Virus record (IMG/VR): IMGVR_UViG_3300025608_000006
Reading direction: 5' to 3' (one strand)
Origin: a virus
Taxonomy: Duplodnaviria > Caudoviricetes
DNA: 64,000 nt
Shown: piece after piece, positions 39,390 to 54,717 of the stretch
Layout: each line of letters opens with the position of its first letter
Position numbering within the stretch: position 1 is the first letter of the stretch
Made by a program: the position numbers and the translations under genes
Notes under the pieces: generated by a model
Seen by the model: only the letters and a program-made list of their open reading frames with translations
Told to the model about the DNA's origin: nothing
The model's database searches: none

Positions 39390-40811
39390 ATGAGCACAAG
39401 ACAAAACACAGACTATGGGTATGATATACAAAAGGTATATCTTGAGATGATGATGAGCGATGCTGAGAGCTTTGTTCGTTGTCAAGCAGTATTTGACCCT
39501 CAAGCATTTGATAGACGCTTGCAGGAAGGTGCAAAGTTTCTCACAGACTATGTGACAGAACACAACGCACTGCCCACATTCGACATGATCAATGCTGCAA
39601 CCAAAGCAGACCTCAAAGATCCTGGACAACTACAGGAGAATCACTATGATTGGCTGTTGAATGAGTTTGAAACATTCAGCAAGCACAAAGCACTGGAAGC
39701 AGCTATTCTCAAGAGCGCAGATCTGCTGGAGAATGGTGATTATGGAGCGTGTGAGGATCTAGTCAAGAAAGCTGTGCAGATTGGTCTACAGAAAGACTTG
39801 GGCACAGACTACTGGGCTGATCCAAGAACACGTCTAGAAGGCATCAAGAGCACAAACGGACAGGTCAGCACTGGTTGGGCTGCTATGGACAAGAAACTGT
39901 TTGGCGGATTCAACAGAGGCGAGCTGAATATCTTTGCAGGCGGCTCGGGTGCAGGCAAGAGTTTGTTCCTAGCCAACATCGGCGTTAACATGGCTGAGAA
40001 GGGCATGAACGTGATGTACTTGACACTGGAACTTGCAGAGAGCTTGGTTAGTATGAGAATTGACAGCATGGTCACAGGCATCAGCACACGTGATGTGTTC
40101 AAGAGCATTGATGATGTTGAGATCAAAGTCAAGATGATTGGCAAGAAGAGTGGTGCATTCCAAGTCAAGTACATGCCCTCAGGCAAGACTGCAAACGATG
40201 TGCGCAGCTATATCAAAGAGTATGAGATCAAAACAGGCAAGAAAGTAGATGTGCTGTTGATTGACTACTTGGATCTATTGATGCCAGCTGGTACAAAGGT
40301 GAGTGCAGAGAACCTGTTTATCAAAGACAAGTATGTGAGTGAAGAACTGCGTAACCTAGCAATGGAACTCAATACAGTGTTTGTTACAGCGGCACAGCTG
40401 AATCGTGGTGCTGTTGAAGAAATTGAATTTGATCACTCGCATATCTCAGGCGGTCTTAGTAAGATTCAAACAGCAGACAACGTGTTTGGTATCTTTACCA
40501 GCAGAGCAATGAGAGAACGTGGACGCTATCAACTACAGCTGATGAAAACACGTAATAGTAGCGGCGTAGGACAAAAGATTGATCTGGGCTTTGATCTAGA
40601 CACACTGCGCATCATAGACTGTGACGAAGATGAAGATGACAACTACACATCAAGCGGTGCAAGCTCAGGCGCTAGTAGTATTGTAAACAACCTCAAACGC
40701 ACCAACACAGCCAGCGAAGATCCCAGTGAAGGAGCAGCAGCACCCAAGATACGTGCTGAAACAGACAGCACCAAACTGCGAGCATTCCTCAACAATCTTG
40801 GTGACGAATGA
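39390..40811 (+). CDS. replicative DnaB-like helicase (gp41)
   Basis: AGGSGAGKS, YLTLEL, LLIDYLDL, TAAQLNR, QTAD, MKTR. Confidence 0.92.
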   Translation: MSTRQNTDYGYDIQKVYLEMMMSDAESFVRCQAVFDPQAFDRRLQEGAKFLTDYVTEHNALPTFDMINAATKADLKDPGQLQENHYDWLLNEFETFSKHKALEAAILKSADLLENGDYGACEDLVKKAVQIGLQKDLGTDYWADPRTRLEGIKSTNGQVSTGWAAMDKKLFGGFNRGELNIFAGGSGAGKSLFLANIGVNMAEKGMNVMYLTLELAESLVSMRIDSMVTGISTRDVFKSIDDVEIKVKMIGKKSGAFQVKYMPSGKTANDVRSYIKEYEIKTGKKVDVLLIDYLDLLMPAGTKVSAENLFIKDKYVSEELRNLAMELNTVFVTAAQLNRGAVEEIEFDHSHISGGLSKIQTADNVFGIFTSRAMRERGRYQLQLMKTRNSSGVGQKIDLGFDLDTLRIIDCDEDEDDNYTSSGASSGASSIVNNLKRTNTASEDPSEGAAAPKIRAETDSTKLRAFLNNLGDE

Positions 40812-42246: not shown

Positions 42247-42612
42247 TTAGTCTGCTCTACTGCCTGCGTAAGCTGTGAAGCCTGCTGCTGAGAACACCTT
42301 AGCTGCTGCGTATGCACCCTGCTCCTTGGTGTACATACACTGTGTGCCTAGCCCACTGGGGTTCCATATGCTGTATGCTCCTGAGTAGTCCTTCTCAAAG
42401 CCTGCTGCCTTCATACGCTTGCCCAGCTTGGTGTTGCCTTTGATGCCGTAGATGTTAACCCAAGCAAAGCCACAGTAGCCTAGCTCACCGTTAGCAGCAA
42501 TGCTGGCTTCAGCTGCATCACGTGCATGCTGTAGTGCCGCAGCCTTAATAGTTTGCAGGTCCTCTACAGTGAGGTCGTTGAGTACAGTAGTTGATGTGTT
42601 GATAGTAGTCAT
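42247..42612 (-). CDS. early hypothetical protein
   Basis: Own promoter module; GYCGFAWVNIYG. Confidence 0.7.
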   Translation of the reverse strand: MTTINTSTTVLNDLTVEDLQTIKAAALQHARDAAEASIAANGELGYCGFAWVNIYGIKGNTKLGKRMKAAGFEKDYSGAYSIWNPSGLGTQCMYTKEQGAYAAAKVFSAAGFTAYAGSRAD

Positions 42613-42674
42613 TTGCTATGCTCCTTAGCGTTAATGTATATACAGTATAGCACCTGTGTGCTGTGTGTCAACCT

Positions 42675-42947
42675 CTAATATTCGTATACAGTTGGCATTG
42701 TCAAGCCCTGGCCTGCACAGTAACGATCCAGTTCCTTGATCACTCTGCCATAGTAGTTGTACTTGTTCTGTGCTTGTGTAGCTGAGATCTCTCCATCGCA
42801 GTGTAGGTTCTCTGGGCTTAGGTCACTGTCTAGGCTACGTGCTAGATCGTTTACTTGTGTTTGGCTAAGTGGGAAGTTGATCTGCGGTGAGTTAAAGAAG
42901 CTACCCCAGGTGTTCTTCTGGTCGATGTATGCTTGTAAGTTTTTCAT
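42675..42947 (-). CDS. early hypothetical protein
   Basis: Own promoter module; LSPENLHCDGEIS. Confidence 0.7.
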   Translation of the reverse strand: MKNLQAYIDQKNTWGSFFNSPQINFPLSQTQVNDLARSLDSDLSPENLHCDGEISATQAQNKYNYYGRVIKELDRYCAGQGLTMPTVYEY

Positions 42948-43012
42948 AGTGTGCCCTCTTTGTTTAACTTATAATACTACTATAACACCAGTTGTTGAGT
43001 TTGTCAACCGTT

Positions 43013-43798
43013 TTAGTAAGAAATTTTTGCCTCATCCAAGCGAGCAGTGATAGCATCGCCGAACTGCCAACCTTCTGGCATAGTGGTGCGCCATCCCAGC
43101 TCAGTGTCAAGACGCAGTGCATCCTTGGGATCGATATAAGCAATAGCAAGATTGTCTTTGAGCATCTCTGCAACTTGTTCTACACTAGCTCCTGACTGAA
43201 ACATTTCAACACTATGCTTGAACAGTAGATCACAAGGTACAATGTGCTCACGGTATGTGCGAACATCTGTAGGTTCATTAATAGTAATATACCGATCCAC
43301 GCAGTCGAACAAGTGACGATGTAGCAATATTGTATTACCATGTTTAGTCACATCTTCAATAAACCTTGCTACGATTTCAAAGTATGGTTTGCCAGCACTA
43401 TCAAATTTCTTCCAACTGCTGGCACCAGCTGGATCCAACAAGTCACAGTCGCTGATCAATTCATACAGTGCAAGGAAGTCATCATCTAGATTGTCGGTTT
43501 CGTAGCGCAGGTTCTTTTGTGAATCGTCTACAGCAAACCCATTATCAGTTAGGTACTCGACTACAATTGGGCGACTCTGATCACCTTTGCCTCCTGGTAG
43601 TCCAACTCCAATCATCAATCGATTGCGAATGTAAAGAACTTCCAATACAACACCTGATTTAAGTGTTTGAGTATAGCAACGCTTGCCTTGACGGTCTTGT
43701 TTACCGCTACCTTCTACTCCTTCGATACTAAATCGGATACTGCTATCCTTTTGATTGATACGAGCGATAAAATCTTTGATACGTTCTTGAGGAGTCAT
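43013..43798 (-). CDS. early hypothetical protein
   Basis: True start MTPQER at 43798 behind a promoter module; C-terminal REHIVP. Confidence 0.65.
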   Translation of the reverse strand: MTPQERIKDFIARINQKDSSIRFSIEGVEGSGKQDRQGKRCYTQTLKSGVVLEVLYIRNRLMIGVGLPGGKGDQSRPIVVEYLTDNGFAVDDSQKNLRYETDNLDDDFLALYELISDCDLLDPAGASSWKKFDSAGKPYFEIVARFIEDVTKHGNTILLHRHLFDCVDRYITINEPTDVRTYREHIVPCDLLFKHSVEMFQSGASVEQVAEMLKDNLAIAYIDPKDALRLDTELGWRTTMPEGWQFGDAITARLDEAKISY

Positions 43799-43864
43799 CT
43801 TGTTGCCCTTTGCCCTAACTGTTATATACAGTATAGCATCTATCTGCTGATTGTCAACCATTAT

Positions 43865-44120
43865 TCAAAAGAAAAAGCCCGGAGCGTATTGGACGAGGGC
43901 ACATCCTGCTCCGGGCTATCCTAAAGGTTATAGAGCGTGAGGGCATACGCTGTTCTATAACCTGTTACCGCACTGTTCTTGGTGACAGCTTCGGCTTATT
44001 GCAGTCTAGGGACGAGGGCACATCCTTCGACTGTTTGAGCTAGCGCGAACGAGGGCACATTCGTTCTAGCTCAGGTTGGACTGCACCGCAGGGTGCGCTA
44101 CAGTCCTACAGTGTTGCGGA
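43865..44120 (-). ncRNA. Putative multi-hairpin regulatory RNA with UGCCCU(C) loops
   Basis: Four hairpins with different stems share one loop (plus-strand GAGGGCA at 43895, 43939, 44014, 44051); the last hairpin is followed by a U-tract on the minus strand. Confidence 0.6.
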
Positions 44121-44123
44121 GCT

Positions 44124-45125
44124 CTATGCTCGACGCATCACCGTATTCTCTGCCATCGCTTCCCACTTGTCGGGGAAAGCGCCAGCTAGGTCTGCTACCT
44201 TGAGCACTGTGCGCAGCGATAGCTCACGCAGCTTGCTCTTGTTGATCTCTACGAAATCCATGATCTCCGTCTTGACTTCTTCTGACAGTTTACGGTCATC
44301 CAACATGCCATCTTGTACCACTTGCTTGATGCGCAGTACTTTGTCCTTGTCACTATCAATAGTCAAGTCCATGTAGTGACAGCGGCTCTCCAGTGCTTCC
44401 AAGTGCTCACGCAGCTTGCCTTTTACCTTATCGAACTTCAAGTTAGTGATAAAGATAGCACTAGCTTCGAACTTGAACTTGTCTGGCACACCTTCGTTGC
44501 GCAGCTTGAAGCTGTCAGTGTTCCAGTGGATCCAACGATTCTTCTTTGAGTCCAATGCTGCTTTCAAGATGTTCAAGCTTAGGTCATCTTGGAAGATGCT
44601 GTCACAGTCATCGAACACCACTACCTTGCCTTTGTCTGCCATGTTGAACAGTTTGCAGTAGAGTCCAATTGGGCTCATAGCGCCTTTGATAACTTCGTGT
44701 GTCTTGCCTGCACCTAGTGTTTCCATAGTTGCATAGCGATCCAGCACTTCTTCAACACCATGGCTCTTGCCCACGCCCGGAGGACCTGAAACGATCATAG
44801 CGCGAACGTTTCCTTTCTTTACCGCTTTGGTCATGTCTTTGAGCATATCAAAACGTTCGCGGATGCGCTCTACAATCTCAGCGTCTGACTCCTCAGGCAA
44901 ATCGTTCTTCTCTGCTTCACCGACCAACTCGTAGTCCTCCGGGCTGCTGCATTTGATCTTGATGTTGCGGTTGGGCAAGCCTGTCACAGGAGTTGCGTCA
45001 ACTGTGACTGCGCCGCCGCTGGTTCCCATAGTAAACTCTTTGGCCATTGGGAATACAATACCGCTCATGTCTGTTTCTTTTCCACGTAGTCTATAAGTAC
45101 CATTTACAATCTTAATGTTCTGCAT
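44124..45125 (-). CDS. AAA-family P-loop ATPase
   Basis: SGPPGVGKS Walker A, VVVFDDCD Walker B, FITN sensor, ALESRC arginine finger. Confidence 0.85.
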   Translation of the reverse strand: MQNIKIVNGTYRLRGKETDMSGIVFPMAKEFTMGTSGGAVTVDATPVTGLPNRNIKIKCSSPEDYELVGEAEKNDLPEESDAEIVERIRERFDMLKDMTKAVKKGNVRAMIVSGPPGVGKSHGVEEVLDRYATMETLGAGKTHEVIKGAMSPIGLYCKLFNMADKGKVVVFDDCDSIFQDDLSLNILKAALDSKKNRWIHWNTDSFKLRNEGVPDKFKFEASAIFITNLKFDKVKGKLREHLEALESRCHYMDLTIDSDKDKVLRIKQVVQDGMLDDRKLSEEVKTEIMDFVEINKSKLRELSLRTVLKVADLAGAFPDKWEAMAENTVMRRA

Positions 45126-45193
45126 GTGTTTGCCCTCATGTGTTTGTTTAACTTATATACAGTATAGCATCAATCTAACGTTTGTCAACCACT

Positions 45194-45370
45194 TTATGTA
45201 AATATTAGATAAAGAATTCCAAGTACTGCAATCACCACAGCAGGTGGTACCAGTGTGAAGATCAAGCTGTGAACACACTGTTCCCAAAAGCCCACGTACT
45301 CGTTGCAGTTGTGACACTGTGGAGCAAAGAAGTTCTTATCCATTTGATGACAGTTTGGACATACGCTCAT
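45194..45370 (-). CDS. small Zn-ribbon membrane protein
   Basis: MSVCPNC...QCHNC followed by a hydrophobic C-terminal helix; AGGAG RBS. Confidence 0.55.
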   Translation of the reverse strand: MSVCPNCHQMDKNFFAPQCHNCNEYVGFWEQCVHSLIFTLVPPAVVIAVLGILYLIFT

Positions 45371-45371
45371 C

Positions 45372-45509
45372 TTATAATACTCCTACAAAGGATGGTTGAA
45401 GGACAGCACCTGCCCACATAAGTCCTGCGCCAAGCCATATCAGTATTGCACTCAGCAAGCCTGTTTGCCACAGCACCAAAAGGATTACTAGTTTGATCAG
45501 CGTTCCCAT
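45372..45509 (-). CDS. small membrane protein
   Basis: MGTLIKLVILLVLWQTGLLSAILIWLGAGLMWAGAVL. Confidence 0.5.
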   Translation of the reverse strand: MGTLIKLVILLVLWQTGLLSAILIWLGAGLMWAGAVLQPSFVGVL

Positions 45510-45510
45510 C

Positions 45511-45786
45511 TTAGCGATCCTTGCGATCAATAGTGATCGTTCCCTGCATCCATGATACAATCAACTCACGGTCTTCATCTGAGAAGTCTTTAGCAGTTGT
45601 ACCAAACGTAGCGCCAAAGTGTGTGAGCGCATTGCCCACATGGCTTAGGTTGTTGAGTGTGCGCAAGCCATCTTCAGTCACAGGGCCAAGTCCGTGAATC
45701 TTACCGTACTCTTCTGAGTAGTTCATCATCTCACGTCCGATAGTAGCCAGTTGCTTCTGTTCAGTTGTTGCTTCGAAAAATGCCAT
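45511..45786 (-). CDS. early hypothetical protein
   Basis: Own promoter module. Confidence 0.65.
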   Translation of the reverse strand: MAFFEATTEQKQLATIGREMMNYSEEYGKIHGLGPVTEDGLRTLNNLSHVGNALTHFGATFGTTAKDFSDEDRELIVSWMQGTITIDRKDR

Positions 45787-45896
45787 TGTGTTTGCCCTTT
45801 ATCTAATTGTTATATACAGTATAGCTTCACTTGCGGAGTTTGTCAACCCCTAATTTGGAAGTCCGCCATTCCAGTCATCACAGGGATCATCATACA

Positions 45897-46115
45897 TTAT
45901 TCGTCCTCCTGTTCACGACCTTGTGCAAAGTCCAACAAGTCTGCTGCCAATGCTGCTGCTTGTGCGCGAGTCAACTGCACCCAGCTAAACGGGCCGCCTT
46001 CGCTCCAGCTGCCTACTTTGCTCTGTGTCAATTGCACACAAGTGCCTCGGTCGCTGCCTCCAAAGAAGCGTGTCATTGTTACGCCTTCTGCGTGTGTTTT
46101 CAATTCTGTTGACAT
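45897..46115 (-). CDS. early hypothetical protein
   Basis: Own promoter module; RFFGGSDRGTCVQLTQ. Confidence 0.65.
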   Translation of the reverse strand: MSTELKTHAEGVTMTRFFGGSDRGTCVQLTQSKVGSWSEGGPFSWVQLTRAQAAALAADLLDFAQGREQEDE

Positions 46116-46180
46116 CGTGTGCTCCTCTAATGTCTAACTTATACATACACTATAGCACCACTGTGCTAGTTTGTCAACCA

Positions 46181-46345
46181 CAAAAGTAGCAGGAGGAGTA
46201 CTTTTTTTGATCGAGGGCACAATCAAATGTTCCTCTACTCCTGCTATTTGTCCGGGCTCTGGGGCAAGTCTATTAATAGTCCCCAGCGCCGACAGTCGCT
46301 ATGTGATCTGTGCTTCACGGTTATTAGCACGAGCGCTGTCTACTC
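46181..46345 (-). ncRNA. Putative structured RNA 3' of the tRNA cluster, ending in a UGCCCU-loop hairpin
   Basis: Stems GACAG/CTGTC, GTGCT/AGCAC, CTGGGG/CCCCAG and TAGCAGGAG/CTCCTGCTA enclosing TTTGAT-TG-TGCCCT-CG-ATCAAA. Confidence 0.5.
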
Positions 46346-46349
46346 AGTT

Positions 46350-46426
46350 TGGCCTCCCCTGCAGGATTCGAACCTGCGACCCACAGCTTAGAAGGCTGTT
46401 GCTCTATCCAGCTGAGCTAAGGAGAG
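46350..46426 (-). tRNA. tRNA-Arg(UCU)
   Basis: CTCTCCTTAGCTCAG...ACAGC-CTTCTAA-GCTGT...GGTTCGAATCC...GGCCA; encoded CCA. Confidence 0.95.
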
Positions 46427-46430
46427 TATA

Positions 46431-46507
46431 TGGTGGGCCCACCGAGACTCGAACTCGGAACCTACGGATTATGAGTCCGGTGCTCTAACCAATTGAGCTA
46501 TAGGCCC
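46431..46507 (-). tRNA. tRNA with CAU anticodon, probably Ile2 (lysidine) rather than Met
   Basis: GGGCCTATAGCTCAATTGG...CTCATAA...GTTCGAG...GGGCCCACCA; acceptor stem resembles bacterial tRNA-Ile2. Confidence 0.85.
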
Positions 46508-46513
46508 TGTCTT

Positions 46514-46598
46514 TGGTGCTCCCTGTCGGACTTGAACCGACATGCCTTGCGGCGACAGATTTTAAGTCTGTTGTGTATACCTATTCCACCAAGGGAGC
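46514..46598 (-). tRNA. tRNA-Leu(UAA)
   Basis: 85 nt with long variable arm; ACAGA-CTTAAAA-TCTGT; encoded CCA. Confidence 0.93.
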
Positions 46599-46612
46599 GA
46601 ATTCTGTTTTAC

Positions 46613-46771
46613 TTATGCCCCATCATCCATTTCTAATTCAAACTCTGAAGCCATATCTTCTTCAATAGCTTCAGCAAGTGCTTCATACTTGGCTCGCAGT
46701 TCGCTTACCTGCCGCAGCGACAGCACACGATCCAAGTCTTTGATAACATCTTGTAGTGTAATATAATCCAT
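46613..46771 (-). CDS. small acidic hypothetical protein
   Basis: MDYITLQDVIKDLDRV...; TAATG coupling with the upstream gene. Confidence 0.55.
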   Translation of the reverse strand: MDYITLQDVIKDLDRVLSLRQVSELRAKYEALAEAIEEDMASEFELEMDDGA

Positions 46772-46968
46772 TACTGCACCCATACGTGGTTGAATTTGGT
46801 TGGAAGGTTATCACAGCTGAAGATCTCATCTGTGTAGTTAACGACTTTGACGCACTCATTTGTTGCGTAGCTAACATGGACATCTGGCGCACTCAACGCT
46901 GAGTTCATTGCGTATCCTAGTCCTGCTAACATAGTCCCTGCAAACGCGATAGTAAAAACTGCTTTCAT
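46771..46968 (-). CDS. early membrane-anchored hypothetical protein
   Basis: Own promoter module; N-terminal hydrophobic helix; CVKV...C. Confidence 0.65.
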   Translation of the reverse strand: MKAVFTIAFAGTMLAGLGYAMNSALSAPDVHVSYATNECVKVVNYTDEIFSCDNLPTKFNHVWVQ

Positions 46969-47042
46969 TGTCGTTGCCCTTTTGCTTAACTGTTATATAC
47001 AGTATAGCGCCGAAACGCTATACTGTCAACACCTAATTTGCC

Positions 47043-47291
47043 TTATTCAGCAAAAACTTTTGCACGTGATCCTGTGATGTCACGAGCACTTACTGCATAG
47101 CGAGCCTTGCCCGTTGTAGCAGTGTCCACACGCACGTTCAATCCAGCAGCTCGCAAGTCGCTGATTCGTGCAGTTAGATTTTGGATTCCGAAACGTGCCT
47201 TTGCATCAGCAGCAGTGATTGTCTTGCCAGTGCCACGCAGGTAAGTTTCAAGGAATGCAGTTTGGTTTGATTTAATAGTAGTAAAGCTCAT
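47043..47291 (-). CDS. small helix-turn-helix DNA-binding protein
   Basis: LETYLRGTGKTITAADAKARFGIQNLTARISDLRAAG winged-HTH-like pattern. Confidence 0.65.
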   Translation of the reverse strand: MSFTTIKSNQTAFLETYLRGTGKTITAADAKARFGIQNLTARISDLRAAGLNVRVDTATTGKARYAVSARDITGSRAKVFAE

Positions 47292-47390
47292 AATATGTAC
47301 CCTTTAGAAAGTTTAGTTTAAAGTTTGCCTATCAACACTTTTTGCTCCAGTGTCTATATAGTATAGCACCTTTGCGGGATATGTCAACCC

Positions 47391-47585
47391 CTAATTGAAC
47401 ATATCGTCCCAAGCATCTTCAGTGATGCCAGTCTTGATGAACTCACGCTCACCAGCTGTTAGTTGGGGGAATGCATCCTGTACCAACAGTTTGCCTTCAA
47501 AGTAGGCTTCAACCTGCTCGTAGGTTACGTCAAGATCCATGGTGTTCTCTTGGCCGTTGAATGGATTAGTACGTGTGATTTTCAT
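47391..47585 (-). CDS. early hypothetical protein
   Basis: Own promoter module; QDAFPQLTAGEREFIKTGIT. Confidence 0.7.
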   Translation of the reverse strand: MKITRTNPFNGQENTMDLDVTYEQVEAYFEGKLLVQDAFPQLTAGEREFIKTGITEDAWDDMFN

Positions 47586-47650
47586 AGTGTTTGCCCTTTT
47601 CCCTAACTGTTATATACAGTATAGCATCAATTGAGGATTTGTCAACCTCT

Positions 47651-47848
47651 TTATGCAGTTTTAGTGCCAGTCTTTAGATTATATTCAAAGCGCAGACCGC
47701 CCAGTACATCACGACAGCGGATGTAATCATAGTAGCCTTGTGCCTTCATTGCTTGATGAACAGCCTTGCCATCCGCAGCGTTTGATACAGTGTCTACCCA
47801 CTGCTCTGCACCACCGTCTTTGATTCCGAATATTTTGTAGCTTCTCAT
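47651..47848 (-). CDS. early hypothetical protein
   Basis: Own promoter module. Confidence 0.65.
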   Translation of the reverse strand: MRSYKIFGIKDGGAEQWVDTVSNAADGKAVHQAMKAQGYYDYIRCRDVLGGLRFEYNLKTGTKTA

Positions 47849-48062
47849 CGTATTGCCCTTTGCCCTAACTGTTATATACAGTATAGCACACTCTACGGAT
47901 TTGTCAACCCCTAATTGTCACTAACAATAAATTCACGCTCTTCTGGCAGGTATGCTATCAGCACATCTTTGGGCACTCGTTGCAGCATCTCGTAGAGTGC
48001 AGTTGTGTCCCGATCTTCGAGGTCGTTCTCTATCTGGTGAATCACTTCGTCCCACAGGTCCA

Positions 48063-48344
48063 TCATAGCGCATACTCCTTATTGGATTTCAACTGCCACT
48101 TCTCTAACACAGGCAAGCCGTATTCATCTTCGTCCACAACCACATAGGCAACTGTCTTCTTGACTGTGCCATAACGGTAGCCAGTCATGCCAGCAACACC
48201 GCCACCACCTACCCATATCTTGTGCAGCGTGTCCTCATTGCAGTTGTTCAACGGATCATCGTTGACACTATACTCGAAGTAATTGCCTGTGTCCTTCTCA
48301 ACGAAGCAACCTATTGGATCTTTGGTGTAGGTGTAGTATGCCAT
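48063..48344 (-). CDS. early hypothetical protein
   Basis: Own promoter module; TVKKTVAYVVVDEDEYG. Confidence 0.65.
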   Translation of the reverse strand: MAYYTYTKDPIGCFVEKDTGNYFEYSVNDDPLNNCNEDTLHKIWVGGGGVAGMTGYRYGTVKKTVAYVVVDEDEYGLPVLEKWQLKSNKEYAL

Positions 48345-48443
48345 GTCTTGCCCTCATTGCCTAACTGTTATATACAGTATATGCTCTAATAGGGGATCTG
48401 TCAACCATTATTTGGAAAAAAGATCCCCTTTAGAATCAATAGC

Positions 48444-49010
48444 TTACAAGCCTGTGGGTGCTAGGTTTACTTCTTCGTCTTCATCCTCTTCTTCTTCCAT
48501 TTCCTCATACTCTGCAAGACGCTCGTCTAGAGCATATTCGTCCACAAGATACTCTGGGATCATGTTGCGAACAGTGTCTGAGGTTGCACCTGAATAGTCA
48601 TAGTGGTCGTCAGCACCTTCTGAATCCCAGTAGCCAACGAAGCACATACCGCCTTCTTCGTAGTATGCTTCTAGGTATACGCCGTCCATGTCATCACAGA
48701 ACGCTGAGTAAGCGTCAATGGGCGGGCTCCAAGCCGAATCAAACCAACCTGTGATCTCACTAGTGCCGTCACCGTTGTCTGTGAACTCAAGACCTTCAGT
48801 ATCAACATCCCACTTGGTCCCCCAGTTAGTGACACACCAGTCATACCAGTTAGGCCCGTCACTAGGAGCAGTTGTCCCTTCTAGTTCCTTAGGCATAGGA
48901 ATCATTGCGTTCAACAAGCCGCTGCCTTCTTGATTAGCGTCTTCCCACAGTTCCTTGATAGTCTCTGTGGAACCTTTGATTGTGATTGAGTTGTTGCACC
49001 AGTTAGGCAT
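48444..49010 (-). CDS. MPNWC-type (DUF1281/YubB ferredoxin-like) protein
   Basis: MPNWCNN, WYDWCVTNWGTKWD, FDSAWSPP, YYEEG. Confidence 0.7.
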   Translation of the reverse strand: MPNWCNNSITIKGSTETIKELWEDANQEGSGLLNAMIPMPKELEGTTAPSDGPNWYDWCVTNWGTKWDVDTEGLEFTDNGDGTSEITGWFDSAWSPPIDAYSAFCDDMDGVYLEAYYEEGGMCFVGYWDSEGADDHYDYSGATSDTVRNMIPEYLVDEYALDERLAEYEEMEEEEDEDEEVNLAPTGL

Positions 49011-49161
49011 AGTCAGTCTCCCCCATAAGTTCTGTATCTACAATATCGGAATGTTCAAACGAGTAATCACACTCGCTCATGATGTCCTGGATGTCAGCGT
49101 CCCTAAGGACCTCCAACGCCACTGTGACATAAACTGTCTTGGTGTTGTCAGCGCCTGCCAT
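49003..49161 (-). CDS. small acidic hypothetical protein
   Basis: MAGADNTKTVYVTVALEV...; coupled to both neighbours. Confidence 0.5.
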   Translation of the reverse strand: MAGADNTKTVYVTVALEVLRDADIQDIMSECDYSFEHSDIVDTELMGETDYA

Positions 49162-49379
49162 TAGCAGTCCTCCCCAAATGCGTCATACAGTTCTGTCAAG
49201 TAATCAACGTCTGGCTCATCGTCTTCGAAGAACCGCTCGCTCAACTCATTACAGTCAAGCATATCCTCAACGTCATCGTTGCTCATATACTTGAGCGCCA
49301 TAGTCAGCATGTCTTCTGCTGACACCATGCCGTTCTCAACCAACTCAAGTGCGATATCTCTGTAGTTTGTCATTTGCAA
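49161..49379 (-). CDS. early hypothetical protein
   Basis: Own promoter module; LKYMSNDDVEDML. Confidence 0.65.
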   Translation of the reverse strand: MQMTNYRDIALELVENGMVSAEDMLTMALKYMSNDDVEDMLDCNELSERFFEDDEPDVDYLTELYDAFGEDC

Positions 49380-49447
49380 ATGCCCTCTGCTTTGTTTAAC
49401 TTATATATACACTATAGCACCGAATGCGCTATGTGTCAACCTCTTTT

Positions 49448-49651
49448 TTAAGCTATAGCTTCTTCTTTTGTTTTGCGATGATAGAACGCTTCCAAGTCTA
49501 CGCAGCCGTCTACTTCAAGACCTGCGAGCAGCTGGGTGCGTTCTTGTTCATCGAATGCTTGATGATATTCATCCGGAGTATATTCACTAGCAGCGCAGTA
49601 GTTGGCGCCTTCCCAAACTAGTACAAAACGGTTGAAACGTACTTCTGACAT
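49448..49651 (-). CDS. early hypothetical protein
   Basis: True start MSEVRF behind a promoter module. Confidence 0.6.
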   Translation of the reverse strand: MSEVRFNRFVLVWEGANYCAASEYTPDEYHQAFDEQERTQLLAGLEVDGCVDLEAFYHRKTKEEAIA

Positions 49652-49723
49652 AGCAGTAATCCCTCTGCGTTTGTTTCTATACAAGTAGTATAACACAGCC
49701 CGAAGGCTGTGTCAACCTTTTTT

Positions 49724-50206
49724 TTAGATGTCGTAGCCTTGTGCTTTGAGGCGTGCCACTTCAAGTGTTACACGAGTCTCCAAGTCGTCAAAGATTGGAA
49801 AGCCAAGTGCGTCCGAACCTGCATTGTAACGGTCATGCACAATCCAACCTGCGGCAGTGTGCAAGTAAAAGTATTCGCAGCCGCTGCCTGTGTAGTATTC
49901 AACAAACTCCTGCACAGTGTCAAACTCGACTGCTTCTGTGTTGCTTTCGCCTCTGTCACGTCCGTAGAATACAGTAACGCCTTCCTCTGGAGTTGCAAAG
50001 CTGTGTCCGCTGCCTGGCATTGGAAAAATTTCTTCTGCCATGTAGCTTTGATCGCCTAGCTCTACCATCTGTGCAACTTTGCGAGCTTGCTGGTAGTGCT
50101 CCTGCAACGTGCGTCCTGCGCCTGCTACATAGCCATCATAGTGTGAATACTTTGCACGGATTTTGCCTTCTGGTGTTTTGTAACCAATTGCTGAACGAGT
50201 TCCCAT
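49724..50206 (-). CDS. early hypothetical protein (MGTRS-type)
   Basis: Own promoter module; MGTRSAIG...HYDGY...YGRDRGE...EYFYL. Confidence 0.7.
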   Translation of the reverse strand: MGTRSAIGYKTPEGKIRAKYSHYDGYVAGAGRTLQEHYQQARKVAQMVELGDQSYMAEEIFPMPGSGHSFATPEEGVTVFYGRDRGESNTEAVEFDTVQEFVEYYTGSGCEYFYLHTAAGWIVHDRYNAGSDALGFPIFDDLETRVTLEVARLKAQGYDI

Positions 50207-50285
50207 TGCATATGCTCCTTATGCGTTTGTTTAACTTATACATACACTATAGCACCTGAATGCTATAGTGTCAACCTTTTTCTGC

Positions 50286-50561
50286 CTATGCCTCCAAACT
50301 TTTTAGCATGCTGGCTGTGACCTTCCACTTGCCCTGCGTGGGCGAGTTTACAATCACTGTCTTGCGATTGATTTTCTCAACCATTCCCGTCACAGTGCGT
50401 CCACCGCGTCCTGTGAAGCTTACAGCATCGCCTACAGTGAGTGAACGTGCTGTAGCTCGTGCGTTGAATGTGCGTTGGAGTTTGATTGCTTCAACCACTT
50501 GGTTGATCTCATCGTTGTTCATGTTGCGGATTGCTGTGATTGCGGTTTGTACGTTGTTCAT
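50286..50561 (-). CDS. early hypothetical protein with SH3/KOW-like C-terminus
   Basis: Own promoter module; LTVGDAVSF...GMVEKINRKTVIV...WKVTASML. Confidence 0.7.
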   Translation of the reverse strand: MNNVQTAITAIRNMNNDEINQVVEAIKLQRTFNARATARSLTVGDAVSFTGRGGRTVTGMVEKINRKTVIVNSPTQGKWKVTASMLKSLEA

Positions 50562-50604
50562 CTTGTAGCCCTCTTTGTTAACTTATACATACACTATAGC
50601 ACCA

Positions 50605-50823
50605 CTATGCTAGAATGTCAACCTCTTTTTCAAACTTTTCTACAGTTTCTTCAAATTGTTTTGCAAGCGATACCAAGTTCATCATAGCAAACTCAGCTTC
50701 CATGCTGCCTGCTTCTGTTGTGTCCAGTATGCGGATGCGCTCTGCCATCATGCCTGCGATTGCTTTATATGCACCGCACTCACGTGCTGTCTTCATGCTT
50801 TGATCAAAAAATGTATCGTTCAT
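50605..50823 (-). CDS. early hypothetical protein
   Basis: Own promoter module; C-terminus overlaps the next promoter. Confidence 0.65.
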   Translation of the reverse strand: MNDTFFDQSMKTARECGAYKAIAGMMAERIRILDTTEAGSMEAEFAMMNLVSLAKQFEETVEKFEKEVDILA

Positions 50824-50887
50824 CTTGTTGCCCTCTTGCTTAACTTATACATACACTATAGCACCAGTCGTGCTAGTTGTCAACTCC

Positions 50888-51280
50888 TTATTGCAAGAAA
50901 TCTTCCTTTAGGATCTCCAGCATACGAACTGCTTCTGTACGTGCTTGATCAATAGCTTCAATTGCCATGCCGTTGATAACGCCGTCTGTTTTGTCATCTT
51001 GTGCCAGCCAATCTGCAGGTGACTCTGCTACAATTGAGCCTAGGTAGCTCTCGCCCATAACCTTGCCGTCATACTTGGCTTGCACACGAACGATCATGTG
51101 CTGCCAAAAGCCCGACTCCAAGTTTTCAATCAACTCAGGGTAGTAGTCTGCCTCAGTGTCAAACAACAGATCCAACTGAGTGTCGTCTGGAGCGAACGCA
51201 ATCTCTACTGTGAACTGCTCGTGGTCGAACTCTTCCTCTACGTAGAAGTTGTCGTTGTTTTTGAAAAATGCGTGTGTCAT
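50888..51280 (-). CDS. early hypothetical acidic protein
   Basis: Own promoter module. Confidence 0.65.
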   Translation of the reverse strand: MTHAFFKNNDNFYVEEEFDHEQFTVEIAFAPDDTQLDLLFDTEADYYPELIENLESGFWQHMIVRVQAKYDGKVMGESYLGSIVAESPADWLAQDDKTDGVINGMAIEAIDQARTEAVRMLEILKEDFLQ

Positions 51281-51429
51281 GTGCTTGCCCTTTGTTCTAA
51301 CTATACATACACTATAGCACAGGTGTGCTGGGTTGTCAACCTCTAATTTAAACTTTTTTCTGAGGACCCAACAGCGGGGCCTACAGGTGTGTACACTATA
51401 GCACAGTGTGCGCTATAGTGCAAATTATT

Positions 51430-51675
51430 TTATAGCTGCTCTAGTGCAGCTTCTATTATATTATGCGCACAGCTGTCTGTTGCAAAGCCCTCCTCTTGTG
51501 CAAAGTCGACGCTGCTGCTGCACATAATAGTGTCTGTGTTTACATTAACGTTGTTTGCTGTAAACAGTGCTGCAAGTTGTGCTGCTGTGTATGCAGCGCC
51601 TACAACTGTGTTGTTTACTGTTACAACAATTGCAGCGTCTGTTGCGTTTAGGAATACGTAGTTTGTGTTTTGCAT
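51430..51675 (-). CDS. early hypothetical protein (GA/TC-poor segment)
   Basis: Own promoter module; CSSSVDFAQEEGF. Confidence 0.6.
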   Translation of the reverse strand: MQNTNYVFLNATDAAIVVTVNNTVVGAAYTAAQLAALFTANNVNVNTDTIMCSSSVDFAQEEGFATDSCAHNIIEAALEQL

Positions 51676-51804
51676 AATGTGCTCCTCATATGCTTGTTTA
51701 ACTTATACATACACTATAGCATATGTATAAGCAGTTGTCAACTGAAAGTAATTGTTGGAAAACAAGCACTTAGCATTTTTTTACTAAGTGCTTGTTTTTG
51801 TTGG

Positions 51805-52074
51805 TTAAATTGCGCAATGTACAATGCGCAAATAACGTGCTGTGCTAGGCATAGCGTATGCAAACGTTTTAGTTGCGTGTACACATTTAACGTTTAGTGC
51901 TTGCTGCAACTGCTGCAATACACTAGGAGGCATGCTGCTTACAGTAAAGCACAAGTTGCGCAGTTTAGGATTTACACACATATTTGTATAAGTGTGCTTG
52001 CTTACAGCAATATTGTTTTGCTTTAGGATGTTACGTACAATGTTACGTGCTGTTTTAGTAGTAGTATTTTGCAT
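51805..52074 (-). CDS. early hypothetical protein lacking Asp/Glu/Gly/Trp
   Basis: True start MQNTTTK behind a promoter module. Confidence 0.55.
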   Translation of the reverse strand: MQNTTTKTARNIVRNILKQNNIAVSKHTYTNMCVNPKLRNLCFTVSSMPPSVLQQLQQALNVKCVHATKTFAYAMPSTARYLRIVHCAI

Positions 52075-52165
52075 ATAAAGCCCTCTATGCTTGTTTACGT
52101 TATATACACTTATAGCACAAGTGTGCGCTGCTGTCAAGTGTTTTTTTAACAGCAGCACAACTTTT

Positions 52166-52369
52166 TTACAAGTACTTGCTTTCGTTTACCTCGTCGTTGC
52201 TGTAGCGTGTAGCTGCTACAATTGCAGCATAATCGGAGTTTGCCGCTAATAGCTGCTGCATAACAGCAACAAGCTCCTCTGCTGTGTCTATGCACAGTGT
52301 TTGCGTTTGTGTTACGTACTCGAGTTGTTGTGCGCAGTGCTGTAGTGCTAGTGCTTGTGTAATTTGCAT
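52166..52369 (-). CDS. early hypothetical protein
   Basis: True start MQITQ behind a promoter module. Confidence 0.55.
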   Translation of the reverse strand: MQITQALALQHCAQQLEYVTQTQTLCIDTAEELVAVMQQLLAANSDYAAIVAATRYSNDEVNESKYL

Positions 52370-52461
52370 AGTTTGCCCTCTATGTTTGTTTACGTTATAA
52401 CTTAATATAGCACAAGTGTGCGCTGCTGTCAACTGAAAAATGCTAACAGCAGCAACTTTTT

Positions 52462-52755
52462 TTATGCAACTTGCATACTTGTAATAGTGTCTGCATAGTA
52501 GTGCAGCATGCTATACATGCATTCTCTAACAGCAGTATCCGCAGCACTGTTTAAACAGGCAGCTGCTAAACTGTTTACTGTTGTGTGCTGCATGTAGTTG
52601 TCGTATAAAAATTGCATTTTATAGCAGTTGTCTAATATGCAGTAGTCGTTTGCTTCCGCTACGCTGTCATGTGCAGCGTGTGTAATTGCTTCCGCATAGC
52701 TTGCAATTGCGCTTGCTACTACTTCCGCATAAATTGCTTGTTGTGTGTTTTGCAT
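52462..52755 (-). CDS. early hypothetical protein
   Basis: Promoter module with a TAGACA -35 variant. Confidence 0.55.
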   Translation of the reverse strand: MQNTQQAIYAEVVASAIASYAEAITHAAHDSVAEANDYCILDNCYKMQFLYDNYMQHTTVNSLAAACLNSAADTAVRECMYSMLHYYADTITSMQVA

Positions 52756-52892
52756 AGTAATGCCCTCTATGTTGTTAACTTATACATACACTATAGCATA
52801 TGTTTGTGTGTTTGTCTAGCGAAAAGAAGTGTTGGAAAACAAGCACTTAGCATTTTTTTTGTAAGTGCTTGTTTTTGTTAATTAAATTATTT

Positions 52893-53126
52893 TTACGTTT
52901 GCCATGCAACTACACTGTCATTTTGTATAGCAACACGTACATTTTCTAATGCGCCATTTGCTGCACTACGCTTTGCAAAAAAGTGCATAATGTCTCCGGC
53001 ACTGTGTTTTGTTTTGTTGTAAAAATTAAAACTTGTGTATACACACTTGTCTACTGCACAGTAAGCAACAGCAGTTGCGTTAGTAGCAAGGTCGGATACA
53101 TTATTAGCATTTGTGTAACGTAGCAT
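52893..53126 (-). CDS. early hypothetical protein
   Basis: Own promoter module. Confidence 0.55.
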   Translation of the reverse strand: MLRYTNANNVSDLATNATAVAYCAVDKCVYTSFNFYNKTKHSAGDIMHFFAKRSAANGALENVRVAIQNDSVVAWQT

Positions 53127-53309
53127 ATTATAGCCCTCTATTTTGTTAACTTGTACATACAGTATAACACAAACAGCACAGTTGTCAACTGAAAAATGAA
53201 CAAAAATGAACAGCTAAGTCATTGACTGCCAACAGTTTTAAATTTTATTTTAGCCAATACAATCAAACACTTAGCAGCACCTCGGGCACAAATGTGAACA
53301 CAGTCGGCA

Positions 53310-53642
53310 CTACATGCTCCAGTATGCCTCACTAGCTGGGCTCATATAGTTGGGAGTGTTGACCGACTCAGTATACAGTGTGTTGCTCATCATATTTGTG
53401 CGTGTGCGACTCTTCTCAATAGTACTATGGAAGTAGTTGGCCTCTGCTATGCCATAACGGTACTGAGGATCGTTGACTGAGTCCTTGAGGTCTGCTCTAT
53501 AACGTTTGCTCATCTTAGTAAGAGCAGCTTGGGCAGCACTCATGGTCTTGTAGCTCTTGCGGTGATCTGGACGAACCTCGCCCGAACGTGTGTCCATCTT
53601 GCCCATGATGTAAGTTGACGATTTTTCATAAATGTAATACAT
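53310..53642 (-). CDS. early hypothetical protein
   Basis: Own promoter module; ESVNTPNYMSPASEAYWSM. Confidence 0.7.
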   Translation of the reverse strand: MYYIYEKSSTYIMGKMDTRSGEVRPDHRKSYKTMSAAQAALTKMSKRYRADLKDSVNDPQYRYGIAEANYFHSTIEKSRTRTNMMSNTLYTESVNTPNYMSPASEAYWSM

Positions 53643-53701
53643 AGTGATCCCTCTACGTTTGTTAACTTATAATACTACTATAGCACCATACTGCAGGCTT
53701 G

Positions 53702-53917
53702 TCAACCTTTTTGTTTGAGGCGCCGCCTTCTTTGAGCAGCCACCTGGGGTCTGAATTGTTCTTTTAGTGTGCTCAAGTTCTCGCTCACAAACTCTTCAAA
53801 TGAATATGGTTGAACCTGACGGAAGCCATCATACTCATCTCGATTCTCCCAGTAGCGATTGGTACAGAACACTCTGAAACTTCTTGGACGATGATAGCTT
53901 GAATGTGAATGACTCAT
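53702..53917 (-). CDS. early hypothetical protein
   Basis: True start MSHSH behind the first promoter module of the array. Confidence 0.6.
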   Translation of the reverse strand: MSHSHSSYHRPRSFRVFCTNRYWENRDEYDGFRQVQPYSFEEFVSENLSTLKEQFRPQVAAQRRRRLKQKG

Positions 53918-54025
53918 GTTATAGCCTCTGATCAATTAACCTATACACTAACTATAACACCAACAGTTGCGTTTGTCAACCTCTGATTCACAAACTCAAC
54001 AACAAACAACAGAACCTAAACCCCC

Positions 54026-54632
54026 AACAGCGGGGCCTTTACAGCACAGTGTACAGTATACTAGTAGTAGAGTCAATAGTAGTAGAGCTGAGTGTGAACA
54101 GTATAGTAATAGTAGTAGTAGAGCACAACCTATACAGCATAGTAGTAGCAGTAGTAGTTGAGCTAGAGTTGACACTATACAGTCAGTCAGGTGCTGTACT
54201 AGTAGTAGAGCTCTACGAGGAAGGTGCCAACAGCGGGGCCTTTGACAGCATACACGGTGTCATACACGGTGTCAACACCATCAAATGTGGTTTTCTTGGT
54301 TGATTTTGGGTGAGTAGATGTTATAATATAACAGTTCTCTTCACGGTTTGCACCACTATATATAGTATGAAAAAAATTCTTGCGCTCGGTCACGAGAGGC
54401 ATAGTTCAAATACTTTTGCAGGTTTGCATTCTACAGTTTACACCTTTGCAATTTGCAACTCACACTCGTTAACAGCGGGGCCTTTGTGTGTGTACGTTGG
54501 TTGTATAGGCTCAATAGCTCCGCTCAACTACTACTACTACTACTAGCAGTATCACTACTACTACTCATACTACTCATACTCAAGATGGATAGGCTCTTCT
54601 ACTCCAGTAGATTGTTCAACAGCGGGGCCTTT
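54026..54632 (+). repeat. Four direct copies of AACAGCGGGGCCTTT (fifth, partial copy at 51370)
   Basis: Exact 15-mers at 54026, 54229, 54471 and 54618 within low-complexity (TAG)n/(CTA)n DNA. Confidence 0.85.
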
Positions 54633-54717
54633 GTGTGTTTGCTACTACTACTATAGTCCGTGTATACGCATATGCCTTTTATGCTTGACAGAGTGTATAG
54701 TGTGTGCTATATAGTAG

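Follow-up and report, generated by a model that had tools for sequence, protein, structure and literature searches.

A PeSL-type promoter-leader module repeated through the probable hyperplastic early-gene region of an uncultured marine T4-like phage

From 42.6 to 54.0 kb of the window (the whole stretch of 64,000 nucleotides analysed here), small minus-strand genes are preceded over and over by the same promoter and leader. Is this unit only a strong promoter, a common control site, or also a joint at which genes are exchanged? Judging from the sequence, the window comes from an uncultured marine T4-like phage, and this array is very probably its hyperplastic early-gene region, made of modules of the type published as PeSLs (promoter-early stem-loops; Arbiol 2010, Comeau 2014). 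The phage carries T4-like genes for sheath, terminase, a gp32-like SSB, UvsX, a UvsW-like helicase, gp41 and gp61. Almost every one of its small early genes has its own copy of what reads as a strong host-type promoter plus leader.

Shuffles predict 0.26 matches to TTGACA-N15-19-TATAST in the 64-kb window; the search returned 23, of which 21 lie on the minus strand at 42644-53979. Allowing one mismatch added 52818 (TAGACA) and 52137 (-10 TATAAG), and the total is 24 minus-strand modules with a mean spacing of ~490 bp. The repeated promoter-leader unit of the original prediction is thus real. Its order is an A-rich UP tract, GGTTGACA, N16/17, TGn, TATA(C/G)T, GTATRTAWMAGTTA, an A-rich leader, (G/A)AGGGC and ATG. 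The modules and their neighbouring elements are as follows.

53915..53999, minus strand: module 1, -35 T at 53979, TATAGT, ATG 53917; ORF 53917-53702, 71 aa
53640..53725, minus strand: module 2, -35 at 53705; ORF 53642-53310, 110 aa, its family present in 9 related loci
53124..53208, minus strand: module 3, -35 at 53188, 16-bp spacer; ORF 53126-52893, 77 aa
52753..52838, minus strand: module 4, degenerate -35 TAGACA at 52818, preceded by the terminator hairpin acaagcactta...taagtgcttgt; ORF 52755-52462, 97 aa
52367..52452, minus strand: module 5, -35 at 52432, TATATT, UP tract and -35 enclosed by a 12-bp stem; ORF 52369-52166, 67 aa, found only in the window
52072..52157, minus strand: module 6, -35 at 52137, -10 TATAAG, a 27-mer in common with module 5; ORF 52074-51805, 89 aa
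51673..51761, minus strand: module 7, -35 at 51741, preceded by a second copy of the terminator hairpin of module 4; ORF 51675-51430, 81 aa
51278..51359, minus strand: module 8, -35 at 51339; ORF 51280-50888, 130 aa
50821..50903, minus strand: module 9, -35 at 50883; ORF 50823-50605, 72 aa, its stop codon within the module 10 spacer
50559..50641, minus strand: module 10, -35 at 50621; ORF 50561-50286, 91 aa
50204..50294, minus strand: module 11, -35 at 50274, 12-bp stem-loop over the -10 (z = -5.3); ORF 50206-49724, 160 aa
49649..49735, minus strand: module 12, -35 at 49715, spacer hairpin CACAGCC-TTCG-GGCTGTG (z = -6.1); ORF 49651-49448, 67 aa
49371..49459, minus strand: module 13, -35 at 49439; ORFs 49373-49161 (70 aa), 49161-49003 (52 aa) and 49010-48444 (188 aa, Api92-like domain)
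48342..48424, minus strand: module 14, -35 at 48404, enclosed by the stem GGGGATC...GATCCCC; ORFs 48344-48063 (93 aa) and 48066-47911 (51 aa)
47846..47927, minus strand: module 15, -35 at 47907, subtype A box GTATATAACAGTTAGG; ORF 47848-47651, 65 aa
47583..47665, minus strand: module 16, -35 at 47645; ORF 47585-47391, 64 aa
47289..47407, minus strand: module 17, -35 at 47387, atypical, lacking the box and with a hairpin in its 68-nt leader; ORF 47291-47043, 82 aa, a winged-helix protein (HTH_39)
46966..47049, minus strand: module 18, -35 at 47029, 12-bp stem over the -10 (z = -5.1); ORF 46968-46771, 65 aa, then the tRNA cluster
46350..46598, minus strand: tRNA-Leu(taa), tRNA-Met(cat) and tRNA-Arg(tct), downstream of module 18, with no module of their own
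46113..46197, minus strand: module 19, -35 at 46177, subtype B; ORF 46115-45897, 72 aa
45784..45866, minus strand: module 20, -35 at 45846; ORFs 45786-45511 (91 aa) and 45370-45194 (58 aa)
45123..45208, minus strand: module 21, -35 at 45188; ORF 45125-44124, 333 aa, the most conserved cassette, encoding an AAA ATPase with homology to T4 NrdC.10
43796..43877, minus strand: module 22, -35 at 43857; ORF 43798-43013, 261 aa, no homologue in the fetched loci, look-alike viral clusters listed in a protein atlas
42945..43027, minus strand: module 23, -35 at 43007; ORF 42947-42675, 90 aa
42610..42691, minus strand: module 24, -35 at 42671; ORF 42612-42247, 121 aa
42190..42223, minus strand: intrinsic terminator-like hairpin, 15 pairs and a T-run, ending the array after the last cassette

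The number of modules agrees with the 24 single-gene cassettes originally described, but only 19 of them serve one ORF, while five serve two or three genes or one gene plus the tRNA-Leu/Met/Arg cluster. To call the cassettes a host-takeover or anti-defence library is conjecture; among 30 array proteins no functional family was recognised except the NrdC.10-like AAA ATPase, the winged-helix protein and the Api92-like domain. The module cores fold with a mean MFE of -7.7 kcal/mol compared with -4.5 in shuffles, and six modules reach z <= -2.3. A convincing stem-loop, overlapping the -35, the spacer or the -10, is found in only about half of the modules, where it would probably attenuate read-through or antisense transcription.

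Conservation well past the -10, also claimed beforehand, was confirmed by a column-wise information analysis anchored on the -10. The conserved columns comprise an upstream A/T tract, GG plus TTGACA, the -10 TATA[C/G]T with (G)TGC in front of it, and a further 15 columns, GTAT(A/G)TA(T/A)(A/C)AGTTA(A/G), at 0.35-1.3 bit each; downstream follow an A-rich stretch, the (A/G)AGGGC ribosome site and the ATG. With up to one mismatch the box GTATRTAWMAGTTA has 14 copies in the window (0.34 expected), all directly 3' of an array -10 and none elsewhere. The predicted start, T-1/A+1, is kept in 21-22 of the 24 modules, and purines make up 71.5% of the predicted initial transcribed sequence, compared with 55.7% in the background. 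The discriminator has no G at -5, a base which favours long-lived open complexes. As had been noted for a near-identical pair, the 27-mer TTGACAGCAGCGCACACTTGTGCTATA lies upstream of both ORF 52369 and ORF 52074.

The same module is present in 119 IMG/VR stretches. In 36 related loci, fetched by protein homology alone, 344 promoters carry 0.38 bit per column after the -10 and 0.08 in the spacer. Far from being fixed, the set of cassettes and its order are different in each relative. Upstream ends of homology blocks lie in modules in 66% of cases, the modules making up 19% of the region, and 113 of 121 blocks do not cross any module. Clean single-cassette indels are bordered by two modules: the module 10 cassette is missing between the W9 and W11 homologues in loci L064 and L032, and in L032 a module matching module 22 drives the homologue of the next gene instead. 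Identical 17-nt spacers precede non-homologous genes in 25 module pairs, and spacers with up to two mismatches in 137, against none in shuffles for either. Taken together, the differing order, the blocks ending in modules and the identical spacers support the reading of modules as PeSL-like recombination joints, as originally proposed. Since a 60-90-bp unit recurs every ~490 bp and the phage has a UvsX recombinase, the modules probably also act as homology patches, a mechanism of recombination which we infer. Among relatives, cassettes have been inserted, deleted, replaced and re-ordered at the patches, and parts of modules are exchanged too, giving chimeric modules.

It could be argued that the modules are strong promoters only, alike through functional selection, and bystanders of shuffling by illegitimate recombination or whole-block exchange. 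Any gene-level rearrangement must adjoin a module because nearly every gene has one, so breakpoints close to modules are expected anyway. The nearest relatives share only 65-85% DNA identity, too diverged for crossover points to be fixed, and the reads gave ambiguous joints and no firm module-to-module junction, which leaves the predicted ongoing expansion and contraction unsupported. However, the promoter spacer is not read base by base by RNA polymerase, and the identical spacers before unrelated genes speak against selection alone. So do the chimeric modules, in which one spacer is joined to different box subtypes, and the islands of spacer identity, which stop less than 30 nt past the -10 and are confined to the module. 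Module similarity is also greater within than between contigs, and greater among neighbours than among distant modules. In RB49 and phi1, mini-circles have been sequenced with junctions inside PeSLs (PMC2839356). We therefore regard mere bystanders as improbable. A dedicated site-specific recombinase moving promoterless cassettes on a repeated unit, as in integrons, is hardly conceivable. Single-gene cassettes with a repeat between them give only a superficial look of it; each cassette has its own promoter, no integrase or recombinase family was recognised among the 30 array proteins, and the repeat is a promoter and not an attC-like imperfect palindrome of fixed structure, by which this reading is effectively refuted.

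What, then, is the box past the -10? Most likely it is the discriminator plus the initial transcribed sequence, which would set the start site and ease escape from a near-consensus promoter while doubling as the 5' end of a standard leader. Each module would be a maximal host sigma70-type promoter, in which a proximal UP-like A tract is followed by GGTTGACA, a spacer of 16/17 bp, TGn and TATA(C/G)T. Behind them would come a 6-bp discriminator GTAT(A/G)T, an A start site with T before it, and a leader of 25-30 nt, purine-rich and unstructured; the ribosome site, (G/A)AGGGC, is specific to the class and lies 6-8 nt 5' of the ATG. The predicted start AUAAGUU resembles, we assume, that of N25. Phage promoters near consensus are escape-limited and modulated ~10-fold by the initial transcribed sequence (PMC12464699), and T4 early promoters show extra consensus beyond UP/-35/TGn/-10 (PMC2988021). 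Two observations count against this explanation: the missing G at -5, and a second, lower-GC clade that keeps the exact box with a different ribosome site (AAGGAG), a conservation which exceeds what escape efficiency obviously needs.

Such conservation, with the box at a fixed register in at least 14 modules and two phage clades, would suit an operator, at which a DNA-binding protein of phage or host would turn all genes of the early class on or off in concert. A candidate is the winged-helix protein of cassette 17, encoded within the array behind a module that itself lacks the box; subtype A contains a short dyad, TATAC-T-GTATA, and early shut-off is not settled even in T4 (PMC2988021). Yet no dyad is seen in subtype B, every copy of the box in the 64-kb window adjoins a -10, and the box sits where discriminator, start and initial transcribed sequence are expected. 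RB49 PeSLs, re-derived here, have an unrelated, equally conserved stretch at the same place (TATAAT-ACACACATACCGAAACGAA...TAGGAGAATCAAAATG), which points to a role in promoter or leader that PeSLs share. The shared operator once suggested is thus quite unlikely.

Compatible with the discriminator reading, though unlikely, is that shared leader and unusual ribosome site form an RNA-level handle for class-wide silencing of early mRNAs. The silencing agent would be an RNA directed against the ribosome site, or else a nuclease or repressor resembling T4 RegB or RegA. RegB targets GGAG in early ribosome sites and gives a precedent. Of the 24 modules, 16 have the site (G/A)AGGGC(A) and four others AGGG or GAGGC, while genes outside the array have AGGAG-type sites or none. 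The complement of the site, UGCCCUC, has five sense-strand copies in two non-coding array stretches (43895-44057 and 46213). However, the role of this motif may be structural, since at least the last copy forms part of a hairpin that, with its U-run, looks like a terminator. The lower-GC clade, moreover, keeps the box but has AAGGAG.

Integron cassettes are promoterless and require an integrase and attC sites. Integron arrays and lambdoid morons resemble our array in that small accessory genes are gained or lost as units; in contrast to it, integron cassettes depend on these sites, and the promoters and terminators of morons are unrelated and are not believed to drive the movement of these genes. 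The likeness to PeSLs goes further. In a PeSL, an AT-rich tract and a near-perfect sigma70 promoter go with an SD, an ATG and a stem-loop that can take any of five positions; ~100 bp are conserved, and the elements occur in hyperplastic regions with indels at PeSLs and mini-circles (PMC2839356, PMC4122927). As far as sequence allows comparison, the array agrees with them in every feature testable in silico, and it is a clear further case of this design, not a new type of system. With RB49/phi1 PeSLs (Arbiol et al. 2010, PMC2839356) it shares the AT-rich tract, a near-perfect promoter of the form TTGACA-N17-TATAxT, a stem-loop that lies between the hexamers or overlaps them (in subtype A, G-run/C-run stems around the -35), a conserved leader, SD and ATG, dense occurrence in ORFan-filled hyperplastic regions, and single-cassette indels between relatives with an element at each border. 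Both also have a conserved stretch after the -10, and this trait is therefore not new.

The units differ from those of RB49/phi1 in being unrelated outside the hexamers (GTATRTAWMAGTTA in the array, ACACACATACCG in theirs), in the ribosome site ((G/A)AGGGC versus TAGGAGA) and in the -10 (TATA(C/G)T versus TATAAT). A strong stem-loop is found in only about half of the array modules, the array is denser (24 modules in 11.4 kb), and its host is marine. PeSLs of T4/PST and KVP40/nt-1 (Comeau et al. 2014, PMC4122927) have the same architecture; where related T4-like phages, large marine Vibrio phages among them, differ by insertions, deletions, replacements or displaced ORFs, these PeSLs are likewise associated with the changes. 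Their promoters are off consensus (TTTACW...TAYWAT; TTGYVH...TAWWAT), whereas those of the array are consensus-like, and their stem-loops lie upstream of the promoter instead of overlapping it. The T4 early 'uber' UP/-35/TGn/-10 promoters and strong early promoters such as T5 N25 and T7 A1, like the array, bring all RNA-polymerase recognition elements together, with extra consensus and a purine-rich, escape-controlling initial transcribed sequence (PMC2988021, PMC12464699); those promoters are described as regulatory signals and not, as proposed for the array modules, as repeated recombination joints.

A search for TTGACA-N15-19-TATAST in the window gave 23 matches where 0.26 would be expected; 21 of them are minus-strand matches at positions 42644 to 53979. 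When one mismatch was tolerated, we obtained 24 modules (repeated promoter-plus-leader units, numbered 1 to 24 from about 54.0 kb down to 42.6 kb and named also by the coordinate of their -35), with a mean spacing of about 490 bp. The motif array is real and greatly exceeds what chance would give. With the -10 as the anchor, the modules read, in order, an A/T tract, GG followed by TTGACA, a spacer of 16 or 17 bp that varies and ends in (G)TGC, and TATA(C/G)T. TTGACA is perfect in 22 of the 24, with one deviation in each of the other two, TGn is found in most modules, and positions 4-10 nt before the -35 hold almost nothing but A or T, as in AAAAAAGAGG and AAATTAGGGG. Column-wise analysis of the 24 modules confirmed the earlier claim that conservation goes beyond the -35 and -10: 15 more conserved columns, GTAT(A/G)TA(T/A)(A/C)AGTTA(A/G), follow the -10, and then come an A-rich stretch, (A/G)AGGGC and the ATG. 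A ribosome site, (G/A)AGGGC or GGAG, is located 6-8 nt 5' of the ATG in 24/24 modules. Stop codons commonly fall a few bases from the next -35, and some lie within the next module. The original prediction of 24 single-gene cassettes (a cassette being what one module serves) was right in the number of modules and for the 19 that have one ORF; the other five serve two to three genes, or a gene plus three tRNAs.

A plus-strand block with a gp61-like primase and a gp41-like helicase converges on the array, and tail sheath, tail tube, terminase, gp32-like SSB, UvsX and UvsW-like helicase genes are found further upstream. The largest cassette gene (module 21) encodes an AAA ATPase homologous to T4 nrdC.10, with at most 44% identity to any cultured phage. 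A DNA search of GenBank phages gave matches at tRNA genes only and thus no cultured close relative, and metagenomes from marine and estuary sites contain the stretch. Because of these T4-like genes, the lack of a cultured DNA match and the marine and estuary presence, we conclude that the element is the accessory early region of a marine T4-like phage that has not been cultured. Of the 30 array proteins, 26 belong to no family, or only to PHROGs of unknown function, according to PHROGs, Pfam and the protein atlas. The functional exceptions are the AAA ATPase, one winged-helix protein (HTH_39, module 17) and one Api92-like domain. The idea of a host-takeover or anti-defence library is a conjecture, reasonable by analogy to T4 early genes. 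A host look-up among 185,579 genomes returned 29 matches, mostly single chance hits. The same promoter arrays are carried by L174 (JBDNIA010000195.1; 10 modules in 8 kb) and L181 (JALRIV010000172.1), contigs binned into two Crocinitomicaceae MAGs, and by L193 and L198 (NZGL010000xx), binned into one gammaproteobacterial MAG. These contigs are probably mis-binned phage DNA, and the hint that they give at the host is weak and conflicting.

Elements of this kind have already been published. The promoter-early stem-loops (PeSLs) of T4-like phages are intergenic units of about 100 bp in hyperplastic regions, composed of an AT-rich tract, a sigma70-like early promoter (in RB49, a near-perfect TTGACA-N17-TATAAT), a stem-loop, a Shine-Dalgarno and a start codon, the stem-loop being placed upstream, over the -35, between the hexamers, over the -10 or just downstream (Arbiol et al. 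2010, Comeau et al. 2014). Their definition is based on three pairs of cultured phages. The array modules share the AT-rich tract upstream of the -35, the sigma70-like intergenic early promoter (16-18 bp spacing in PeSLs) and the Shine-Dalgarno plus ATG at the 3' end, with about 85 bp conserved here versus about 100 bp in PeSLs. The setting is also an ORFan-rich hyperplastic region flanked by T4-like core genes, and insertions, deletions and replacements between relatives lie at the modules as well, although the relatives compared are only 65-85% identical in DNA. Every PeSL-defining part occurs in the array, the stem-loop convincingly in no more than about half of the modules. Re-deriving the RB49 elements from the genome revealed conservation downstream of their -10 as well, TATAAT-ACACACATACCGAAACGAA...TAGGAGAATCAAAATG, and thus conservation past the -10 is a general PeSL trait with lineage-specific sequence. 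We regard the array as a clean, dense PeSL example from an uncultured marine clade. It differs from an integron, which contains an integrase, attI/attC and promoterless cassettes, in that every cassette has its own promoter, and no recombinase family was found among the 30 array proteins scanned.

About half of the modules have a clear stem-loop in or beside the promoter, and the rest have a weak one. Promoter cores fold at a mean of -7.7 kcal/mol versus -4.5 for shuffles. The stem-loops, all on the minus strand, are the following:
Modules 50274 and 47029, minus strand: 12-bp stem overlapping the -10 (z <= -5)
Module 49715, minus strand: UUCG hairpin in the spacer (z <= -5)
Modules 49439, 50621 and 52137, minus strand: stem-loop, clear examples
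Modules 52432, 52137 and 48404, minus strand: stem enclosing the -35
Modules 47907, 47387 and 45846, minus strand: GGGG...CCC stem

Searching with the box (the conserved stretch of about 15 nt directly past the -10) returned 119 IMG/VR stretches, many with 5-16 promoters. Against circularity, a second locus set was fetched by AAA-protein homology alone. Its 36 loci at 65% identity or more span 485 kb and contain 344 distinct promoters, of which 301 share the strand of the gene. These promoters have 0.38 bit per column after the -10 versus 0.08 in the spacer; its 13 loci at 45-49% identity have almost no such promoters. Most cassette families of the window recur in the fetched loci at 40-90% amino-acid identity, in a different order and company. 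For instance, the 110-aa family (module 2) has eight different next neighbours in eleven contexts, and the 160-aa family (module 11) behaves likewise. Cassette order and content are not fixed across relatives, in agreement with the shuffling originally proposed: the same families have different neighbours.

The strongest point for shuffling is the spacers shared before unrelated genes. The 290 distinct modules include 25 pairs with the same 17-nt spacer before non-homologous genes and 137 pairs with no more than two spacer differences and non-homologous genes downstream; shuffled spacers gave none in either case. The same spacer also occurs with different box subtypes, forming chimeric modules. 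On the 3' side these identity islands stop less than 30 nt past the -10, and on the 5' side most do so within a few bases of the -35. At a larger scale, the upstream end of 66% of the 121 distinct DNA homology blocks (150 bp or longer) lies inside a module, with modules being 19% of the region, and 113 of the 121 stop short of crossing a module into the next cassette. Two cases are clean. In the window, the 91-aa cassette and its module (module 10) sit between the 72-aa (module 9) and 160-aa genes. This cassette is missing in the related loci L064 and L032, which have the left half of module 10 fused to a right half leading into the 160-aa gene. The 261-aa gene between modules 22 and 23 has no homologue in the fetched loci, and in L032 the counterpart of module 22 drives the homologue of the gene that comes after the 261-aa one. 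Finally, module mismatches average 7.5 within a contig versus 8.6 between contigs, in 16, and 15.6 between neighbours versus 18.0 between distant modules, in 41 (permutation p < 0.005 for each).

In four marine/estuary metagenome runs, kept as short contigs, contigs break at modules. The runs also contain many module-to-module joints, possibly from relatives or repeats. On their shorter side these are anchored by no more than 20-37 nt of repeated module sequence, too little for them to be weighed for or against exchange at the modules. Examples are the following:
42966 to 43814: joint that skips the 261-aa cassette, in metagenome runs X1 and X2, anchored by 20-37 nt of repeated sequence
49722 to 50237: joint in metagenome run X3, anchored by 20-37 nt of repeated sequence

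Taken with the phage's own UvsX, the evidence from spacers, homology blocks, indels and module similarity supports the published model, by which cassettes would be exchanged by homologous recombination at the modules. The proposal of PeSL-type shuffling withstood both checks set to refute it: gene order and content vary, and conservation reaches past the -10.

There are two module subtypes, TATACT-GTATATAACAGTTAGG and TATAGT-GTATGTATAAGTTAA, which are spatially clustered. Allowing one mismatch, the box has 14 copies in the window against 0.34 expected, every copy directly after a -10. With a 6-bp discriminator, the predicted start is a column with A in 22/24 modules, preceded by T in 21/24, and the next 20 nt are 71.5% purine versus 55.7% for the strand. 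It has been described that near-consensus phage promoters are escape-limited, and that the initial transcribed sequence shifts their output about 10-fold, purine-rich sequence being favourable (PMC12464699). T4 early promoters also have consensus outside UP/-35/TGn/-10 (PMC2988021). Thus, the simplest reading is that the box would comprise the discriminator, the start site, an initial sequence that favours escape, and the 5' end of a standard leader without structure. This reading leaves unexplained a second, lower-GC clade, in which the exact box is kept and the ribosome site is different.

The box had also been proposed as a shared operator. An operator is unlikely, and nothing specific speaks for it: there is no dyad common to both subtypes, no free-standing copy and no late or second -10 motif; inspection of the aligned modules for an IHF-like or dyad operator found no symmetry common to the two subtypes. 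A second -10 inside the box was rejected, as TATAAG/TATAAC are without the final T and no TGn is in register, and so was a late promoter, the T4 late motif TATAAATA being absent from the array. We consider it unlikely that the invariant part past the -10 (box plus array-only ribosome site) is, beyond efficient expression, a class-wide control handle through which a phage factor shuts the whole immediate-early class off at once. If it were, the requirement that all incoming genes obey this switch would account for a module that stays identical from one phage clade to another. The factor might be a protein that binds DNA at the box; alternatively, (G/A)AGGGC might be the target of a nuclease or of an RNA, the latter perhaps provided by the five UGCCCUC-bearing hairpins inside the array.

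Array genes (42247-53917) have the ribosome site (G/A)AGGGC(A), whereas other window ORFs have AGGAG-type sites such as TAGGAGA, or none. Consequently, the early genes have a class-specific Shine-Dalgarno variant, the only array feature that might hide something more. UGCCCUC, the complement of this site, has five sense-strand copies in two non-coding stretches of the minus strand, 43895-44057 and 46213-46219, and at least the copy at 43895 lies within a terminator-like hairpin with a U-run after it. The window contains 13 UGCCCUC versus 3.6 expected, and the 8 outside these stretches are mostly ribosome sites themselves.

The array extends PeSLs to a clade of uncultured marine T4-like phages and leaves current understanding unchanged. 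Identical neutral spacers before unrelated genes, together with chimeric modules, on dozens of metagenomic contigs, give evidence for the joint model without isolates. The module reliably marks the pool of early accessory genes in these phages, where host-takeover or counter-defence genes, if any, are expected. Promoter and leader may provide a strong expression signal for the marine host.

Other signals were observed in and around the array. On the opposite (plus) strand, at 49693-49712 and 50244-50271, the spacer hairpin and the complement of the UP tract (CAACCTTTTT) form a terminator-like signal, and thus some modules could also stop antisense transcription entering the array. Near-identical terminator hairpins, acaagcactta-N-taagtgcttgt plus a T-run, lie at 52838-52878 and 51760-51800 (minus strand), each just before a module, in an AT-richer sub-block (51.4-53.2 kb) where every gene starts MQ(N/I)T; relatives have homologous hairpins before the same gene family. 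The winged-helix gene is the sole array gene with a 68-nt leader (47292-47366, minus strand). Pairing in its leader hairpin is kept among relatives with differing sequences (ACACT/AGTGT, AACAGT/ACTGTT, ACACTTA/TAAGTGT), and a conserved AAACTTAAACT lies 3' of it.

Three consensus-like sigma70 promoters on the plus strand (28683-28720, 37255-37291 and 39355-39392) are each followed, exactly 7 nt past the -10, by the start codon ATG of a long ORF. The ORFs encode a 390-aa protein, the gp61-like primase and the gp41-like helicase, with no ribosome site, and their mRNAs are candidate leaderless transcripts. TAAATA stands 3-6 nt before an ATG, also with no ribosome site, at motif starts 8617, 13931, 15531, 23281, 41831, 60159 and 63619; the ORFs include the tail tube gene, the terminase gene and the last gene after the array (41821-41597). 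This pattern has 12 matches versus 5.6 expected. TAAATA looks like a T4-type late promoter core (NTAAATA, not the T4 late motif), which would give leaderless or near-leaderless late mRNAs. The 11-mer GGCCCCGCTGT, within AAAGGCCCCGCTGTT, has five copies on the minus strand versus 0.16 expected. Four are in 700 bp of non-coding DNA (54000-54700) upstream of module 1, amid tag/tac-rich simple repeats, and the fifth, at 51371-51381, precedes module 8. The copy at 54038-54018 folds into a CCCC...GGGG hairpin, and the 11-mer may represent an origin, several terminators or a binding site.
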